The notes under the pieces: generated by a model | Databases searched by the model: none | Seen by the model: the letters and a program-made list of their open reading frames with translations, nothing else | What the model was told of the DNA's origin: nothing | Shown: positions 19,110 to 43,224 of the stretch, in pieces | Position numbering within the stretch: the stretch's first letter is position 1 | Layout: each line of letters opens with the position of its first letter | Program-made: the position numbers and the translations under genes | Source: an uncultured Candidatus Saccharibacteria bacterium | Lineage (GTDB): Bacteria > Patescibacteriota > Saccharimonadia > Saccharimonadales > UBA7683 | Direction of reading: 5' to 3' | DNA length: 64,000 nucleotides | NCBI GenBank assembly: GCA_964541305.1 | Contig: CAZIPE010000001.1 | Span: forward strand, 82,350 to 146,349

Positions 19110-19138
19110 ATTGTGAGACACGTGCCGTAAAATGTCAA
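19110..19138 (-). promoter_or_regulatory. sigma70-type promoter upstream of rpoB
   Basis: Minus strand reads TTGACA (19133-19138, overlapping the stop of the upstream ORF), 17 nt, CACAAT (19110-19115). Confidence 0.5.
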
Positions 19139-20214
19139 TCTTTTTTATCAGGGATCATGAGCATAAGGTCTCGAAGTTCCATCAACAACTGTTGGTGTAC
19201 TTCCTCATTCACTATGCCTTCAAACTGAATTGGAACCATTGCCATTGGATTTATGTGCGCTACGGGGAGGTACATCTGCCGACCAAATGATCTAGCTCCC
19301 GGTATCTCCTGAACCGAATACAATTTCATTCCTTCATCCCCTTCAAACACTTCAACATGTATTCGGCCTGGAAATTCAGTCCCATTGACTTGTATATTAC
19401 AGTCGATTGTCGTGGCACGTAAACCGGGGTTTGACGGGTGCTTTCGCTTCTTCTCCGCTAGCGCTACACACGTTTCTAATATGTACTCAATATCTTCGTT
19501 TGGCGTACCTAAGACCTCCCTAACGCGATCAACCACATTCATATTTGTAATATCAGCCGAAGGTAGGTGTAGTAATGCTTTTGAATCTCGTGATGGATAC
19601 TCACTTATTGTCTGACCTACCTCCCGCAGTAGTGCATACGTAGTCTTTAGGACTTCTTCACGTTCACCATTCAGGTCACGTTCTGTTACTACAAGACCTG
19701 AAAAGTTGTCATCAACATTATTTGTGATGTCAACGTCACCCAGTATTTTCACAAACCTACAATCACCGACAGGCTCGGAAGTAATAGTCATGATAGGTAC
19801 ACGCACCCCTCGCACCACCGCTGTAATCATCATCGGACGCTCAGTGTCATCTTCCCAGTATTCAGATGCATGCCTGTTGAATAGCCCCCACGTTCTAGTA
19901 TGTAGTCTTCTGTGCCATATTAGTTCAAGCGAAGTTATTCGTGCGTCCGGGTCGTATACGTCATCGGATAAGGGTAGGTGGCCAACAGGTAGTAGTTCGG
20001 TTAATCCAGTCTCCTCATTGTAGATTCCGACGGCTGTGTTGTCAGCAATACGATATAGATTCGCTCTGTTTCGCAGTGAAGCCGCTTCATTGGCAATATG
20101 CTCTGCTAACAGAAGACAGGGTTCAGAATACAGATCCGCAATATTTGCCATTCTTCTATAAGGGTCGGATTCGTACTGAAAATCCCTAGAAGTTACGTGT
20201 GAGAATTCGCTCAT
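19135..20214 (-). CDS. hypothetical protein, about 359 aa
   Basis: Long uninterrupted ORF, acidic, with no TM segment and no motif I recognise. Start set at MSEFSHV (20214), 10 nt after a TAGTAT box. The track start is 20226. Confidence 0.65.
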   Translation of the reverse strand: MSEFSHVTSRDFQYESDPYRRMANIADLYSEPCLLLAEHIANEAASLRNRANLYRIADNTAVGIYNEETGLTELLPVGHLPLSDDVYDPDARITSLELIWHRRLHTRTWGLFNRHASEYWEDDTERPMMITAVVRGVRVPIMTITSEPVGDCRFVKILGDVDITNNVDDNFSGLVVTERDLNGEREEVLKTTYALLREVGQTISEYPSRDSKALLHLPSADITNMNVVDRVREVLGTPNEDIEYILETCVALAEKKRKHPSNPGLRATTIDCNIQVNGTEFPGRIHVEVFEGDEGMKLYSVQEIPGARSFGRQMYLPVAHINPMAMVPIQFEGIVNEEVHQQLLMELRDLMLMIPDKKD

Positions 20215-20265
20215 GAAGCCAATCATACTATCGTCAGAGCTTTTGGAGCAAGCATAACCTTGACA

Positions 20266-20319
20266 CTAATTCACTCGTTTAGTGATAACTTTATCGACTA
20301 AGCCATATTTATGAGATTC
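20266..20319 (-). pseudogene. displaced clpP 3'-end fragment
   Basis: Encodes ESHKYGLVDKVITKRVN*, compared with the ClpP C-terminus ESLKYGLVDKIVTKPAKQ*. At the DNA level, 20277-20319 matches 21064-21106 at 36 of 43 positions in my manual alignment. Confidence 0.75.
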
Positions 20320-20361
20320 TCCAACTATAGCATCTGTGGGTGTACACTTGTGGAGACACAA

Positions 20362-21009
20362 TCAAGAAAGGTCACGGCGCCAGACAGTGCCTTCATATTC
20401 CTCACCCTCAATAACAGTGATACCTTCATCTATCTGTTTGAAGCCTAGCTCAGTTGGCTTTATATGGTGTTCTGTCACAACTAAGTCCCAATTCTTACCC
20501 TGTCGTTCAGCAACCCTAACAAGCTTTAGTGCACACAGACCCGCTTCTTTGGCAATTTTAATTCCACTGTTAACAACCTTTTCAGGGTTTATTTTCACTG
20601 CTAAAGACCCGTGAAACCAGGTAGACAACACGCGTTCACCCGATTCTCTAAATCTTGGCATCGTGTTATCTTGGCCAAATGAAAGCATGCCAATAGTGTA
20701 ATTTTCTGGCTCGCACACTGCACCCTCCAAGACATCTTTAATGAGGTATGCTGCGTTAGGGCGTCGTGATTGCACGCTTTTGCCAAATGCTTCGGCTCGC
20801 TGGTTGACACTTTGAACGCTTTTATAACGTTCGGGCAAATGATGACTCAAGCCTGCATTGATAAAATCTTCTACTGAAAACATGCCTACGAGTTCGGACA
20901 GGGCCTGTGCATTCTGTAGTCGCTCGGTTGTATTTGGGTTACTAGAGATTGCAGTATCTATTCGAGTCAAGGGATAACCATGCTCTGGTGGAAATTGTAT
21001 TTTACTCAT
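20362..21009 (-). CDS. hypothetical protein, 215 aa
   Basis: Uninterrupted ORF bracketed by the two clpP 3'-end copies. It has its own promoter-like element and no family I recognise. Confidence 0.65.
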   Translation of the reverse strand: MSKIQFPPEHGYPLTRIDTAISSNPNTTERLQNAQALSELVGMFSVEDFINAGLSHHLPERYKSVQSVNQRAEAFGKSVQSRRPNAAYLIKDVLEGAVCEPENYTIGMLSFGQDNTMPRFRESGERVLSTWFHGSLAVKINPEKVVNSGIKIAKEAGLCALKLVRVAERQGKNWDLVVTEHHIKPTELGFKQIDEGITVIEGEEYEGTVWRRDLS

Positions 21010-21049: not shown

Positions 21050-21637
21050 CTACTGTTTTGCAGGTTTAGTGACAATCTTATCGACTAACCCGTATTTGAG
21101 AGATTCGTCTGATGTCATCCAGAAGTCTCGTTCCATATCTTTATGAATTTTTTCTAGCTTCTGACCAGTGTTTTTAGCCATGATTTGCTCGAGTAGATGC
21201 TTTAATCGAATTGACTCCTTGAGGTCGATTTCTTGGTCGGTAACTTTTCCACGAGTGCCGCTTGAAGGTTGGTGAATCATGACCGTAGCGTTTGGTAAGA
21301 TGAATCGCTTCCCTTTTGTGCCTGAACTGAGCAGGAAAGCAGCAGCTGATGCCTGAACACCAATACCAAATGTTTGAATGTCGTTATTGATATAACTCAT
21401 AGTGTCATAAATGGCGAGGGCATCATAGACACTTCCGCCTGGGCTGTTTATGTACATGTAAATATCTTTTTTAGGATCATCACTCTGTAAAAACAGAAGT
21501 TGGGCCACAATTAAACCGGCGGTGTGTTCGTTTACTTCATCGTGAAGAAAGATGATACGGTCTCTGAGCAGTCGACTGTAAATGTCGAAAGCGCGCTCGC
21601 CCTGTCCTGATGGTTCAATAACGGTTGGTACTAACAT
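21050..21637 (-). CDS. clpP: ATP-dependent Clp protease proteolytic subunit
   Basis: 195 aa, VPTVIEPSGQGERAFDIYSRLL, INSPGGSV, and an active-site Ser/His context. Confidence 0.98.
   Translation of the reverse strand: MLVPTVIEPSGQGERAFDIYSRLLRDRIIFLHDEVNEHTAGLIVAQLLFLQSDDPKKDIYMYINSPGGSVYDALAIYDTMSYINNDIQTFGIGVQASAAAFLLSSGTKGKRFILPNATVMIHQPSSGTRGKVTDQEIDLKESIRLKHLLEQIMAKNTGQKLEKIHKDMERDFWMTSDESLKYGLVDKIVTKPAKQ
21064..21106 (-). repeat. clpP 3'-end copy of the 43-bp imperfect direct repeat
   Basis: Partner of 20277-20319 (36/43 identical, same orientation, 787 bp apart). Confidence 0.8.
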
Positions 21638-21643
21638 GATTCT

Positions 21644-21672
21644 ATACTAGCAATTTAGCACTCAACATTCAA
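21644..21672 (-). promoter_or_regulatory. clpP promoter (apparently leaderless)
   Basis: Minus strand reads TTGAAT (21667-21672), 17 nt, TAGTAT (21644-21649), 6 nt, ATG (21637). No SD. Confidence 0.55.
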
Positions 21673-21681
21673 GATTGCTAA
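21655..21681. promoter_or_regulatory. CIRCE-like inverted repeat (putative HrcA operator)
   Basis: TTAGCACTC-aacattcaa-GATTGCTAA matches the consensus TTAGCACTC-N9-GAGTGCTAA at 17/18 positions, with an exact 9-nt spacer. It overlaps the -35 and spacer of the clpP promoter. Confidence 0.7.
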
Positions 21682-37718: not shown

Positions 37719-39062
37719 TTACGATTTTAAATAGGTATTGAGTGCTTCACGTAAGCTCGAAATTGATTGATACGTTGCGAGCGAGGTGTCTGATTTTGGC
37801 CCAATAGCCAGCTTAAAGCCAAGCTGTTTTGCCTCTTTAACTCGCTTTTCTATCTGTGGCACGTGGCGAACTTCACCAGAAAGACCCACTTCTCCGAATA
37901 CTACTGCATCTTGTTTGAGCTTCAAGCCTTTTGCTGCCGATGCAATTGCCATACATACTGCAAGATCCGCTGCCGGTTCAGTTATTTTGATACCGCCTAC
38001 AATGTTGATATACACGTCTTGCTCGCTTAAATCGAGTTTGGTGCGACGCGATAATACCGCAGTAAGTAGCGTCAAGCGGTTCAAATCAAAGCCCGAGGCG
38101 GCGCGCTTAGGGTAGCCAAACGATGTTCTATTCACTAGCGCTTGAACTTCAACCAAAATAGGTCGCGTTCCTTCCATGGCAGCAAGAACAATTGACCCAT
38201 CTGCCACTTGCCTCTCAGCAAGTAATGTGGCAGAGGGATTCTCAACGGGTAGCAATCCACCTTCTTTCATTTCAAATATCCCCACCTCTGAGGTAGAGCC
38301 ATATCTATTTTTAACTGCTCGGAGTGTTTTGAATCCACCGTATCTGTCTCCCTCTAAATTCAGCACCACGTCAACGAGGTGCTCCATCAGCTTAGGCCCA
38401 GCGATAGAGCCTTCTTTTGTGACATGGCCTACTAGAATAAGGGTAGTATTTGTTTGCTTGGCGACTTGCGAAAGAATATGGGTCGAATTGGTAATCTGAC
38501 TTACACTACCAGGAGCTGAAGCAACAGCTTGAGAGGTAATAGTTTGAATTGAATCAACAATAATGAGATCATAGTCCCCACTTAAAATTGTTTGAGCAAT
38601 GTCTTCAGTGCTATTAGAACTAGCGAGCAACACATCTTTATAGTTCTTCGTCACACGCTCAGCTCTGTTACTGACTTGATCAAGCGATTCTTCTCCGCTG
38701 ACGTAAAGTACTTTTTGCTTCTGTGCGATATTTGCTGCAATTTGCACAAGGAGTGTACTCTTGCCTATTCCTGGTTGTCCTGCCATCAATGACACGCTAC
38801 CGCATACAAAACCGCCCCCCAGCACACTATCCACATCACTGATAGAGCTTGAGATACGCCCCTTGGTGGTAGTTTTTGATGAACCCGCAGCCGTTGCCTT
38901 CAAGTGTGCACCACCGAGTCGGGCAGAAGTCAGATTAACGTTTTGTGGAAGTTCTTCAACAAGACTGTTCCAGGCGCCACAGCTCGAGCATCTTCCCGCC
39001 CATTTACTATGTTTGTAGCCACATTCCTGGCAAATAAATTGTGCTGTTTTTTTCGCCATCAT
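37719..39062 (-). CDS. radA: DNA repair protein RadA/Sms
   Basis: 447 aa with an N-terminal CxxC...CxxC zinc finger, a Walker A motif (GQPGIGKST), KNRYG and a Lon-like C-terminal domain. Confidence 0.97.
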   Translation of the reverse strand: MMAKKTAQFICQECGYKHSKWAGRCSSCGAWNSLVEELPQNVNLTSARLGGAHLKATAAGSSKTTTKGRISSSISDVDSVLGGGFVCGSVSLMAGQPGIGKSTLLVQIAANIAQKQKVLYVSGEESLDQVSNRAERVTKNYKDVLLASSNSTEDIAQTILSGDYDLIIVDSIQTITSQAVASAPGSVSQITNSTHILSQVAKQTNTTLILVGHVTKEGSIAGPKLMEHLVDVVLNLEGDRYGGFKTLRAVKNRYGSTSEVGIFEMKEGGLLPVENPSATLLAERQVADGSIVLAAMEGTRPILVEVQALVNRTSFGYPKRAASGFDLNRLTLLTAVLSRRTKLDLSEQDVYINIVGGIKITEPAADLAVCMAIASAAKGLKLKQDAVVFGEVGLSGEVRHVPQIEKRVKEAKQLGFKLAIGPKSDTSLATYQSISSLREALNTYLKS

Positions 39063-39081
39063 CTGACCTACAGTATATCAT

Positions 39082-40041
39082 CTAGCGGAGTGTGGCTTTG
39101 GAACTATCAAGCTGATTAGCTAAATCATTCTCAGAAACTGCTAATTCGTTACGGAGCTTGACGATTGAATTATATTCTGTAATTTTACTACGCAGTTCGG
39201 TCAAGGAAGCGTTATAGGCTTGCACGGCTTGATTAAAGCTGGGGACGCGCTGGTTATATGCACTAGCGCTACCGGACGATCGCAGTGATTCAAGGGTTTT
39301 TTGCAAACTCTCAATCTGAGCGTTTTGTGCTTCAAGCTCTGCATTACCTGAATCAATTTGAGATTTAAGAGTTTTGAGCTGTGCATCGTATGATTCACGC
39401 TTACGCTCGAGGTCCGTAAATTTCTTCTGATATTTCTGAGAATAAGCAACGATAGTAGCCCTATCTTTAAAGTACCTGCTGTAATGTTGTTCAAGTTGAG
39501 GTGAAAGTTTCTTAAGCTCTGTTCCAAAAATTGAGTGCATTTCATTAAGCAGGTCTTCGGTGCCTGCTTTTTTATACAAGGCAAGCGTCTCCTTAACGCG
39601 CGCGTCTGTAACCGTCTGTGCATGCTTTTGCAGTAGTTCGTCTATTTCACGGCGTTCAGCGCTTGAAAGCCGTTCATAAGCAGCGTGGAGCACCTCGTGT
39701 GCCGCAGTGACCTGCTGTACGCCATCAAGCTGTGTGTCATCAACTTCGTACACATAAACACGTTGTTTAGTGTAGCAACCGAGTACGATATTGTTCTGCT
39801 CGAGCCCACTACACGAACTCCTGAACTGCTTAGCTTCCTGAACTTCACTCTGACTTGCTTGATAGAGAAATTCACCCTCATCAGTCAATTCTAACTGTTT
39901 GGCTAATTGTGCTGACTGACTTGAGATATCAGTCGTGTTCACGATATAGAGATCTTTGAGGTGCTGACGATTAGCGTACGCAAGTATGCCACCAGCAATA
40001 AGCACTACTATCACCACCCAGGAAAAGATACGCTTATTCAC
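39082..40041 (-). CDS. hypothetical membrane-anchored HExxH + coiled-coil protein
   Basis: 319 aa with an N-terminal TM segment, HEVLH at AAHEVLHAAY and a long C-terminal coiled coil. The start overlaps the clpC stop. Confidence 0.65.
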   Translation of the reverse strand: MNKRIFSWVVIVVLIAGGILAYANRQHLKDLYIVNTTDISSQSAQLAKQLELTDEGEFLYQASQSEVQEAKQFRSSCSGLEQNNIVLGCYTKQRVYVYEVDDTQLDGVQQVTAAHEVLHAAYERLSSAERREIDELLQKHAQTVTDARVKETLALYKKAGTEDLLNEMHSIFGTELKKLSPQLEQHYSRYFKDRATIVAYSQKYQKKFTDLERKRESYDAQLKTLKSQIDSGNAELEAQNAQIESLQKTLESLRSSGSASAYNQRVPSFNQAVQAYNASLTELRSKITEYNSIVKLRNELAVSENDLANQLDSSKATLR

Positions 40042-42578
40042 TTAGAAATAGTATCCTTTATGCGTGTTTTTTTAGAAGATGATTTTGGCTTATCGCCTGT
40101 CTCCAACTGAAATACCAGTTTTTTCTTTAAGGCCTGTACGGTGATAGTCTGTTCAGTCTTATAGGTGCCAGAGAGCACACCTTCAGCCAGCTGATCTTCA
40201 ACCTCATCTTGCAATACTCTTCGCAGTGATCGTACGCCGTTGTGGGCATCATAACCCTTTTTGAGCAGCCACTTTTTAGCGCTTGGCTGCACTACTAACT
40301 GAAGGGGCGTTGATGTGTGGGCCAGGCGTTGATTGAGATCTTTTATTTGTAGATCAAGTACCTGCCCAGCTTCTTTTTGAGTAAGCGCCCTGAAAACCAC
40401 TATTTTATCGAGACGATTGATTAGTTCGGGTCGCATTACGCCCTTCAGCTCATCAAGCACTCGTTCTTTATTGCTTTCATGCAAATCATCGAGATTATCC
40501 AGATCTTTTTTGGTTTCAGCACGAAACCCAAGTATAGATTCTTTCTGTAAACTCTCAGCTCCTACGTTGCCTGTCATGATTATGACAGTATTAGTGAAAT
40601 CTACACTTCGGCCTTTGGCATCGGTCAAAACACCATCTTCAAGAATCTGAAGGAGCATATTGAAGATATCGGGATGAGCCTTTTCAATTTCATCAAGCAA
40701 TATAACGCTATACGGATTACGTCGCACTTTATCAGTCAGCTGTCCGCCGTCCTCGTAACCAACGTAACCGGCCGGTGCACCAACCAAACGAGAGGCAGTG
40801 TGTCGTTCGCTAAATTCACTCATATCGATTTTAATTAACGCATCTTTTCGCTCGTATAATTCACGAGCCAAAACGCGGGCTAGCTCAGTCTTGCCGACCC
40901 CTGTTGGGCCTAGGAATATAAAAGAACCAATCGGTCGTTTTTTATCACTCATGCCAAGCCGATTGCGCCTTAAGGCACGAGCAACTGATGTGATTGCTTC
41001 TTTTTGACCGATGACATAACGAGAAAGACTCTTCTCAAGCTTAAGTAAGTAATTTGCTTCTTTTTTTATCACTTTGTGCGCGGGAATGCCGGTCATTAGT
41101 TCAATCGTCTCAGCAAGGTCTGCTTCAGAAAGCGTAAGTTTAGCTCGACCGCGTCCTCGCTGTTTTTCAAGTGTTTTTTCAAGCTCTGCCAGCTTTGTTT
41201 TATGTCGTGCTGCCGCCTCAAAGTTTTCATGATCAACCGATTCTGCCAGACGGTGCCGTATGAGCTTAATTTCTTTAAGTAATTTTCGCTGACTCTCGGG
41301 GGTTTTGCCTCGCGAGATTCTAATATGAGCGGCAGATTCGTCTAAAAGATCCAGAGCTTTGTCGGGCATGAATCGCTCGCTCAAATACCGATCGCTCAAC
41401 TCTACGGCCTGATCAATTACCTCATCAGTAATTGCCACACTATGGTGCTCTTCGTAGTGCTTCTTGAGTCCTTTAAGAATCTCGCTGGTTTGTCTGAGTG
41501 TGGGCGGGTGGACCATAACAGTTTGGAAGCGACGCTCAAGAGCGCTATCTTTTTCGATACTCTTACGATATTCCTCAATGGTCGTTGCGCCAATAACTCG
41601 TACACTTCCTCGTGCCAAAACAGGTTTAAGCATATTTGCTGCATCCATAGAACCCTCGGCTGCACCTGCACCAACAAGCAAGTGTAGTTCATCAATAAAC
41701 AGCAGTACCGTCGGGTCATTGCTGATTTCATGCATTAACGCCTTTAAGCGCTCTTCAAATTCACCGCGGTACTTTGTGCCTGCAATTAAGCCAGCAAGGT
41801 CGAGCATAATAACTCTTTTGTCGAGCAGTTTTTCTGGCACCTGCTCTTTTGCAATTCGCTGAGCGAGGCCTTCCGCAATAGCCGTTTTACCCACACCAGG
41901 CTCACCAATAAGCACCGGGTTATTCTTAGTGCGCCGGCTCAATATCGTAATAACACGACGTAATTCTTCTTCTCGACCGATAACAGGATCGAGCTTGTTG
42001 GCACGCGCCTCTTCAGTCAGATCCGTTCCAAAATATTCTAGTGCACTCTTGCCTTTTTTCCGTTTCACCTTTGATGCGTTAGCTGGTTGATTAGGTTGCA
42101 GATCTTCAAACTCATATCGTTGTTGCTGGAGATACTGTTCGAGATCTACAACTAATTCTTCTACATTAATACTCATATCGCGGAGCAGTACGTTAGCCCG
42201 AGCGTTCTTTTGAATTAAGATTCCGTATAAAATATGCTCGGTACCACAGAAGTCTTGGTTAAATTCTTTAGCAATTTCCCAGCTTGTACGAAGCGTCAGC
42301 TTTGCCGCTTCACTCAAACCCTTGCTACCGACACTTATAACGATAGATTTAGGAGTTAACTTCAAAGCCGTGCGAGCACGATCAATTGTCACACCAGATG
42401 TTTCAAGTAGCTTCGCTCCGACAGAACTTTCTTGGCTGAGCACTCCAAGAAGTATGTGTTCCGTTCCTACATAGGCGCTACCCATACTCCGGGCAATTCC
42501 TTCGGCATTTCGAAGAGACAACCGAGCATTTTCAGTCAGTCGTTTGAGGTAATCCTGAAAGTCTGAACTTGCGTGCAT
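40038..42578 (-). CDS. clpC: ATP-dependent Clp protease ATP-binding subunit ClpC
   Basis: 846 aa with a double Clp_N repeat and two AAA+ modules ([16 protein letters not shown]). Confidence 0.97.
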
Positions 42579-42656
42579 GTTCTAATTATACTCCCTATCG
42601 CCCATTGTTTCGTTAGTATTGAAAATTTTACGATATAAATTTATAGTCACTCCTAC

Positions 42657-42685
42657 AGTATAGTAAATTAGCACTCTCGATACAA
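42657..42685 (-). promoter_or_regulatory. clpC promoter
   Basis: Minus strand reads TTGTAT (42680-42685), 17 nt, TATACT (42657-42662). The leader is roughly 75 nt and carries an AGGGAG SD. Confidence 0.55.
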
Positions 42686-42694
42686 GACTGCTAA
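42668..42694. promoter_or_regulatory. CIRCE-like inverted repeat (putative HrcA operator)
   Basis: TTAGCACTC-tcgatacaa-GACTGCTAA matches the CIRCE consensus at 17/18 positions, with the single mismatch at the same position as the clpP copy. It overlaps the -35 and spacer of the clpC promoter and the stop codon of the upstream ORF. Confidence 0.7.
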
Positions 42695-43224
42695 TCTAAT
42701 CGCTCTGTGAAATCAGGTTGCGCAGTGAATTTTGGTTCATTTACTCGTTGACCGGTAAACCCATCTCTCGGATGGAAGTATTTGTCCTGAAAGTAGTCTC
42801 TTTTAAGACCGTCGAATGCGCAGAGTATATCACCCTGTAATTCCCCTTGTGTAAAATAACTCATAGCTGTCTCTATCTGATCAAGCGTCGATCTATGGTC
42901 ACGTTCTGTTTCGTTCCGCACCTCATCGAGTGCATAAAAAAATGATCGAGCACGTGCATCTGGGCCAAGCCTGTCAGGTTCATCAGAATACATCACTTCT
43001 AGAACTACCGGTACGATATCAACCAGTTCATTGTCGGGATTATCTTGCATAGCAATATCGAGTATTGCACGGTGTAGATGTCCGCCCCAGTTGTCTCTTA
43101 GTTTCGGCCACACCCACTCTTCTTCCACAACTTGGCGCATAAAGTCTCTACACTCACCAAACTTTACAAAAGCAACTGGGCTGCAGTTTCGCTCTCTCCA
43201 AAGTGAGACTGGATATTCCGTCAT
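42691..43224 (-). CDS. hypothetical protein, 177 aa
   Basis: Uninterrupted acidic, Trp-rich ORF between nusA and clpC. I recognise no family. Confidence 0.6.
   Translation of the reverse strand: MTEYPVSLWRERNCSPVAFVKFGECRDFMRQVVEEEWVWPKLRDNWGGHLHRAILDIAMQDNPDNELVDIVPVVLEVMYSDEPDRLGPDARARSFFYALDEVRNETERDHRSTLDQIETAMSYFTQGELQGDILCAFDGLKRDYFQDKYFHPRDGFTGQRVNEPKFTAQPDFTERLD

Follow-up and report, generated by a model that had tools for sequence, protein, structure and literature searches.

Probable CIRCE-Type Operators Fused to the Predicted clpP and clpC Promoters of Candidatus Saccharibacteria

In an uncultured Candidatus Saccharibacteria bacterium, clpP and clpC are each preceded by a CIRCE-type palindrome lying over a predicted promoter. 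Judged by comparison across the order, both palindromes are very probably operators of the HrcA repressor of this lineage, fused to sigma-70-type promoters, with the two clp genes being repressed by HrcA and co-derepressed with the heat-shock set. HrcA and CIRCE are classically tied to groESL and dnaK (PMC3842655). The DNA under study, hereafter the window, is a contiguous stretch of 64,000 nucleotides from a genome with a GC content of 44%.

Predicted Operator–Promoter Units in the Window

Positions 21655–21681 of the plus strand read TTAGCACTC AACATTCAA GATTGCTAA and match the CIRCE arms at 17 of 18 positions, with a 9-nt spacer. When up to three mismatches are allowed, CIRCE occurs in the 64-kb window at this place and at 42668–42694 only; the chance expectation is a mean of 0.05 matches, and none of 100 dinucleotide-preserving shuffles reaches two. 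A preliminary description had placed a CIRCE element with 17 matching positions and the exact 9-nt spacer on the clpP promoter, and both the re-reading and the shuffle expectation bear this out.

On the minus strand, which carries clpP, the upstream region runs from the TAA stop codon of a 72-aa ORF (21685–21683) through a single A into the palindrome TTAGCAATC-TTGAATGTT-GAGTGCTAA (21681–21655), and continues 3′ of it with ATTGC, TAGTAT (21649–21644), AGAATC and the ATG (21637–21635). The entire intergenic region comprises only 45 nt. In gene orientation the operator is TTAGCAATC-N9-GAGTGCTAA, its sole mismatch being at position 7 of the promoter-distal arm. The −35 hexamer TTGAAT (21667–21672, minus strand) occupies spacer positions 1–6 and is equivalent in position to the TTGAC of the relatives described below. 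The −10 hexamer TAGTAT (21644–21649, minus strand) follows 17 nt past the −35, begins 6 nt past the right arm and ends 6 nt before the start codon; the preliminary description had given the same geometry, which proved correct on re-reading the minus strand. The offset of this −10 matches that of the relatives and of the metagenomic sites considered below, where, among the loci listed, 97 of 118 have TAnnnT 4–6 nt past the proximal arm against a background of 2.6%.

The gene itself (21050–21637, minus strand) encodes a protein of 195 aa matching the Pfam family CLP_protease (E = 4.9e-75). Since its ATG lies only 6 nt past the −10 (21635–21649, minus strand), a Shine-Dalgarno sequence has no space, and the predicted clpP mRNA looks leaderless. 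The CIRCE element lies between tig and clpP, with the 72-aa ORF following tig; the stop codon of this ORF, which is without a Pfam match, sits 1 nt from the palindrome. Directly downstream of clpP are two ORFs of 215 and 363 aa (19135–21009), also without Pfam matches, and clpX does not adjoin clpP in this genome.

The second site, at 42668–42694, reads TTAGCACTC TCGATACAA GACTGCTAA on the plus strand and again matches 17 of 18 arm positions around a 9-nt spacer. On the gene strand (minus) the layout is TTAGCAGTC-TTGTATCGA-GAGTGCTAA, TTTAC, TATACT, about 78 nt and then the clpC ATG at 42578, the operator being TTAGCAGTC-N9-GAGTGCTAA with C7G in the promoter-distal arm as its only mismatch. The −35 hexamer TTGTAT (42680–42685, minus strand) is located within the spacer, where the relatives carry TTGCAT, TTGCGT, TTGTAT or TTGAC, and the −10 hexamer TATACT (42657–42662, minus strand) lies 17 nt past it, beginning 6 nt past the right arm; a 5′ UTR of about 72 nt is predicted. 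A second copy on the clpC promoter had also been part of the preliminary description, and it stands: the site has the same score, its mismatch is again at arm position 7, and the promoter geometry is the same.

The clpC gene (40038–42578, minus strand) encodes 846 aa with Clp_N and two AAA+ modules according to Pfam, and is followed by a 319-aa ORF and radA. It is preceded by nusA and by a 177-aa ORF that matches no Pfam family; the TAG stop codon of this ORF (42693–42691) falls inside the distal arm of the palindrome (TTAGCA). At both clp genes, ORF ends and operators are very closely packed. A further −10-like hexamer, TATAAT, stands exactly 6 nt before the clpC ATG with GGGAG ahead of it (42579–42590, minus strand), and two clpC relatives have a second −10-like hexamer laid out likewise just upstream of the gene (TACAAT in L212, TAGAAT in L215). 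Going by its position, this hexamer could be a CIRCE-independent proximal promoter yielding a leaderless transcript for basal clpC expression; alternatively, the GGAG of this proximal element could be a distant Shine-Dalgarno sequence.

A generic promoter scan of the window lists neither clp promoter, as each scores 8 of 12 against TTGACA/TATAAT at a cut-off of 9. We call these hexamers promoters because they occupy the same position as the near-consensus TTGAC and TATAAT/TATACT hexamers of the relatives. Both −35 hexamers of the window (TTGAAT and TTGTAT) are weaker than the relatives' TTGAC, and both operators carry a substitution at position 7, a position kept in 76 of 80 relatives. The same substitution, with the remaining positions intact, is found upstream of clpP in L005, L006 and L038 and upstream of clpC in L210. 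Taken together with the weak −35 hexamers, this shared change could indicate that repression is weaker in the subclade of the window.

Conservation Across Saccharimonadales

For clpP, we took 80 of the closest relatives of the window's ClpP (72–89% identity), sampled as one-genome-per-species representatives, all of them metagenome-assembled genomes of Candidatus Saccharibacteria/Saccharimonadales, and recorded the best CIRCE match within 200 nt upstream of the gene. All 80 species possess the element: it is free of mismatches in 42, has one in 17, two in 19, three in one and four in one. The two most divergent sites differ in character. That of L039, with four arm mismatches, is fully symmetric (CTGGCACTC..GAGTGCCAG), and in that of L068 (TTAGCACTC..GAATGCCAG) one arm holds all three mismatches.

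With the sites aligned on the element, the arms hold 1.84 and 1.82 bits per position, the spacer 0.66 and the flanks 0.14 and 0.19. Neither arm varies at positions 2, 4, 5, 6, 8 or 9, and transitions are tolerated at positions 1 and 3. The information in the spacer is attributable to the −35 hexamer. Among 82 sites tabulated (the clpP sites of the 80 relatives plus the two of the window), TTGAC is found at spacer positions 1–5 in 50 and at positions 5–9 in 26, while the subclade of the window has TTGnnn; a TAnnnT −10 is present at the matching distance in the clpP relatives. In the first register the −10 lies about 5–6 nt past the arm and in the second about 9–10 nt past it (L003–L082). The existence of two operator–promoter registers implies that the promoter was displaced by 4 nt while the operator stayed in place as the order evolved. 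An in-frame ATG is located 4–9 nt past the −10 in 45 of the 80 clpP orthologues, a leaderless geometry; the same geometry is seen at clpC in L211, L213 and L214.

Six ClpC homologues were picked by identity step (62–82%) and contig size, blind to DNA motifs. Each of the six genes has a CIRCE element with no or one mismatch 16–68 nt before the ATG, with a −35 beginning with TTG in the spacer; the closest relative (L210, 82% identity) carries the same TTAGCAGTC variant, C7G, as the window. The order nusA, CIRCE, clpC, an ORF of about 320 aa and radA is common to the six relatives (L210–L215). A further ORF of 79–184 aa is inserted between nusA and clpC in three of them (L210, L211 and L212). The ORF of about 320 aa has no significant Pfam domains, and its place between clpC and radA (37719–42578 in the window) is kept in all six.

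Upstream conservation in relatives had been proposed as a check on the CIRCE reading, and the element is indeed kept, at 80/80 clpP and 6/6 clpC genes. The preliminary description had further spoken of a "rewired" heat-shock regulon. This part does not hold: the arrangement, present in 80/80 species, is conserved throughout the order and is not a local or recent rewiring.

Genes Preceded by the Element

A total of 1.44 Mb of Saccharimonadales DNA contains 85 CIRCE matches with at most two mismatches, all of them upstream of clpP (78), clpC (6) or dnaK (1). In the relative L016, hrcA (234 aa) and grpE are followed by clpP with its CIRCE and then by a second CIRCE directly ahead of dnaK, all within 6 kb. 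Two paralogous ORFs of 328 aa (L016:8948-9934 and L016:10594-11580), absent from the window, flank clpP in this cluster between hrcA-grpE and dnaK.

Public metagenomes were scanned with the exact pattern TTAGCACTCTTGACNNNNGAGTGCTAA, i.e., CIRCE with TTGAC in the spacer, which is present at at least 120 loci. The downstream gene was defined as the first substantial ORF in the direction of the promoter, giving 108 ORFs among the matches listed. Among these matches, it is a short hrcA in 38 cases, dnaK in 25, clpP in 8, clpC in 6, groES in 5, clpB in 4 and hsp20 in 3; the remainder comprises two genes for a Zn-ribbon protein, one dnaJ, one groEL and 15 unclassified ORFs. [quoted passage not shown]

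On this comparative reading, the element is a fused operator–promoter cassette, predicted to act before hrcA, before the classical HrcA targets and, here, before the Clp genes. Whether groES and dnaK also carry CIRCE had been suggested as a check, and they do so in relatives and in metagenomic DNA (dnaK in L016, both genes in the census); they lie outside the window. The earlier proposal that Clp is under an HrcA-type operator thus gains comparative support from the sites at 80/80 clpP and 6/6 clpC genes, from the same module at hrcA, dnaK, groES, clpB and hsp20, and from the lack of a CtsR box at the clp genes.

In Firmicutes, clpP, clpC and clpE constitute the class III regulon of CtsR, and the preliminary description had used this as its baseline. 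The comparison was ill-chosen, since the genome is that of a saccharibacterium (CPR/Patescibacteria) whose closest ClpP relatives are all Saccharimonadales. Its contention that the clp genes carry a palindrome rather than a CtsR heptad repeat is nevertheless upheld. The CtsR heptad direct repeat RGTCAAANANRGTCAAA has eight matches with at most three mismatches in the window against 9.5 expected, none of them upstream of clpP or clpC; the count is at chance level. Upstream of clpC, ctsR-mcsA-mcsB was not found in the window or in the six relatives. The arrangement described here is thus like the Firmicute CtsR regulon in its target genes and in the clpC–radA linkage, but the Firmicute operator is a heptad direct repeat and not a palindrome, and ctsR-mcsA-mcsB stands ahead of clpC where nusA and a small ORF are found here.

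A Shortened HrcA

No hrcA was found in the window by tblastn with two queries, an approximate B. subtilis HrcA sequence and the short HrcA of L016. Nor was it found in about 7 kb past one window end (L203, with uvrB and DUF87 genes) or in the ribosomal operon past the other (L206), about 80 kb being inspected in total; these extensions contain no CIRCE either. Had hrcA been lost, the retention of 17 of 18 positions by both operators would not be easily explained.

The hrcA gene of L016 (L016:7723-8427) encodes a protein of 234 aa, here called mini-HrcA. At E ≤ 1e-20 its relatives number at least 8000, and the best 120 of them are almost all 231–247 aa long; the family carries the Pfam domains HrcA and HrcA_DNA-bdg. 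An exhaustive search of cluster representatives gave 9509 matches; about 110 of the best 150 measure 225–280 aa, and HrcA proteins of 340–350 aa match mini-HrcA in two separate stretches. Alignment with five full-length sequences attributes the difference to one contiguous deletion of about 108 residues (about 100–108), corresponding approximately to residues 135–240 of the full-length protein. The missing segment was reportedly named the inserted dimerizing domain by Liu et al. in 2005. Mini-HrcA matches both PF03444 and PF01628, the latter only over profile positions 107–215, i.e., its second half, and scores 184 bits against TIGR00331, below the equivalog cut-off of 197.2. The winged-helix motifs of HrcA are conserved in it.

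An AlphaFold (AF2) model built with 106 diverse cluster representatives reached a pLDDT of 95.6; a shallower run with 24 close homologues gave 44.7 and was discarded. The model matches T. maritima HrcA (1STZ) with a query-normalised TM-score of 0.85 (E = 2.4e-13), leaving about 90 target residues unmatched. A sequence search of the PDB aligned only residues 2–117 to 1STZ, and the C-terminal domain became visible by fold search. According to the model, the HrcA of Saccharimonadales is a mini form of about 232 aa with a winged helix and a GAF-like domain, without the inserted dimerization domain. Similar sequences apparently extend this form to many CPR lineages. In Chlamydia HrcA, residues 152, 154, 222, 229 and 230 belong to the homodimer interface (2025 preprint, PMC12154930); by residue numbering only, with no Chlamydia sequence in the alignment, these fall into the segment missing from mini-HrcA.

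Proposed Mechanism and Alternatives

In the reading we favor, occupation of both half-sites by HrcA would mask the −35 and the spacer of the promoter and exclude RNA polymerase, because the −35 is flanked by the half-sites and the proximal one takes up the gap between −35 and −10. Under normal conditions, the leaderless clpP transcript and the clpC transcript with its leader of about 72 nt would be held low; upon inactivation of HrcA, clpP and clpC would be derepressed alongside hrcA-grpE, dnaK, groES, clpB and hsp20. In the textbook model, unfolded proteins titrate GroEL away and HrcA repression is released (PMC3842655, PMC7737663), and HrcA would be inactivated in the same manner in this lineage. 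We infer HrcA binding, repression, induction by heat or proteotoxic stress and dependence on GroEL, as well as the presence of hrcA in this genome. In the one saccharibacterial transcriptome retrieved, that of TM7x, clpB and clpP rise together.

The two sites of the window might instead be decaying relics, former CIRCE operators that confer no repression now, either because hrcA was lost or because the operator became too weak, with clpP and clpC effectively constitutive. Decay would account for the change at arm position 7 in both sites, unchanged in 76/80 relatives, for −35 hexamers that are degenerate where most relatives have TTGAC, and for the failure to find hrcA in the roughly 80 kb inspected. 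However, both sites retain their 17 other arm positions unaltered, and neither spacer deviates from 9 nt. The position-7 change, moreover, recurs in L005, L006, L038 and L210 with everything else kept, so that it looks like a tolerated variant and not random decay, and hrcA is very widespread in the order; we consider decay improbable. The atypical nature of the lineage's HrcA, which is without the inserted domain and below the TIGR00331 equivalog cut-off, raises the question of whether another regulator reads the palindrome, or whether it is a lineage-specific promoter element only. Yet the sequence is identical to the CIRCE consensus of the literature, it precedes hrcA in 38 of the 108 census ORFs among the matches listed, which is the typical autoregulatory layout of HrcA, its targets are the classical HrcA set plus Clp, and the winged-helix motifs of HrcA are conserved. 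A reader other than HrcA is, in our estimate, very improbable.

At clpP the palindrome follows the preceding ORF's stop codon by 1 nt, and at clpC it overlaps such a codon. These positions also bring to mind an RNA hairpin in place of a DNA operator, ending or stabilising the transcripts from upstream (tig-ORF72 and nusA-ORF177), and read-through RNA could form a 9-bp stem. Against this, no T-tract follows the repeat, and a terminator scan gave no call at either palindrome, its single site (42761–42775) lying upstream of the clpC repeat. The −35 would be in the loop and the −10 after the 3′ arm, and the palindrome would not be part of the mRNA of the gene it precedes, as its distal arm is upstream of the predicted start of transcription. 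Among the 80 species the upstream genes vary and the downstream gene is constant. The arm sequence itself is kept and not the pairing alone, 6 of 9 pairs being invariant with no compensatory changes. We regard a function as an RNA hairpin as extremely improbable, and the reading of both palindromes as HrcA operators is retained below.

Relation to Known Heat-Shock Regulons

The class I regulon of B. subtilis, whose HrcA repressor is modulated by GroE, has the same 9-N9-9 repeat with the consensus TTAGCACTC-N9-GAGTGCTAA, and, as there, hrcA, grpE, dnaK and groES carry CIRCE in DNA related to the window, where hrcA appears autoregulated. The Saccharimonadales regulon differs in adding clpP and clpC (and, in related DNA, clpB and hsp20). 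In B. subtilis, CIRCE lies between the promoter and the start codon, whereas here the operator encloses the −35, many of the targets are leaderless, and the repressor is shorter by about 110 residues.

A parallel in layout is offered by the genome-reduced M. pneumoniae, whose HrcA regulon comprises dnaK, dnaJ, groEL/ES, clpB, lon, pepA and pip, i.e., both chaperones and proteases, and where CIRCE stands between tig and lon (PMC7737663) as it stands between tig and clpP here. However, M. pneumoniae belongs to another phylum, its protease genes concerned are lon and clpB and not clpP or clpC, and a shortened HrcA is not reported in that work (PMC7737663). A precedent for clpP itself in an HrcA/CIRCE regulon is found in S. 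salivarius, where, according to the title of Chastanet and Msadek 2003 as cited in PMC3842655, clpP is dually controlled by CtsR and HrcA. As far as this title goes, the control in S. salivarius is shared with CtsR, whereas here neither a CtsR box nor ctsR-mcsAB accompanies the clp genes, and the arrangement extends over an entire order.

No paper connecting Saccharibacteria, Patescibacteria or the Candidate Phyla Radiation with HrcA or CIRCE came up in our full-text literature searches. The present finding extends the HrcA regulon, with good conservation, to clpP and clpC in a phylum that has received little study; elsewhere, control of protease genes by HrcA is already known. Less expected are the operator–promoter fusion driving leaderless genes and the minimised repressor.

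Implications for Saccharibacteria and the CPR

Most CPR bacteria are epibionts that have not been cultivated, their genomes measuring about 1 Mb, and to our knowledge hardly anything has been learned about how Saccharibacteria or other members of the CPR regulate transcription. As a broader and tentative proposal, to which we give somewhat less than an even chance, a single minimal HrcA consisting of a winged helix and a GAF-like domain, without the inserted dimer-interface domain, may control the chaperones together with ClpP, ClpC, ClpB and Hsp20 across Saccharibacteria, and apparently in much of the CPR, through a compact operator–promoter cassette that often drives leaderless mRNAs. If this is true, mini-HrcA must dimerise on, or read, a two-fold symmetric operator in a manner unlike the HrcA of T. 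maritima and Chlamydia, and it may also sense stress differently.

The finding gives the entire order a well-supported regulon that can be tested, in which one repressor and one promoter-fused operator of 27 bp would serve the chaperones and the Clp protease. The parallel with Mycoplasma, where HrcA took over protease genes, suggests that this is a recurrent outcome of genome reduction. For the annotation of metagenome bins of CPR bacteria, the CIRCE cassette is also of practical use, marking promoters, leaderless starts and stress genes, and a naturally minimised HrcA could reveal what the protein requires to bind its operator and to sense stress.
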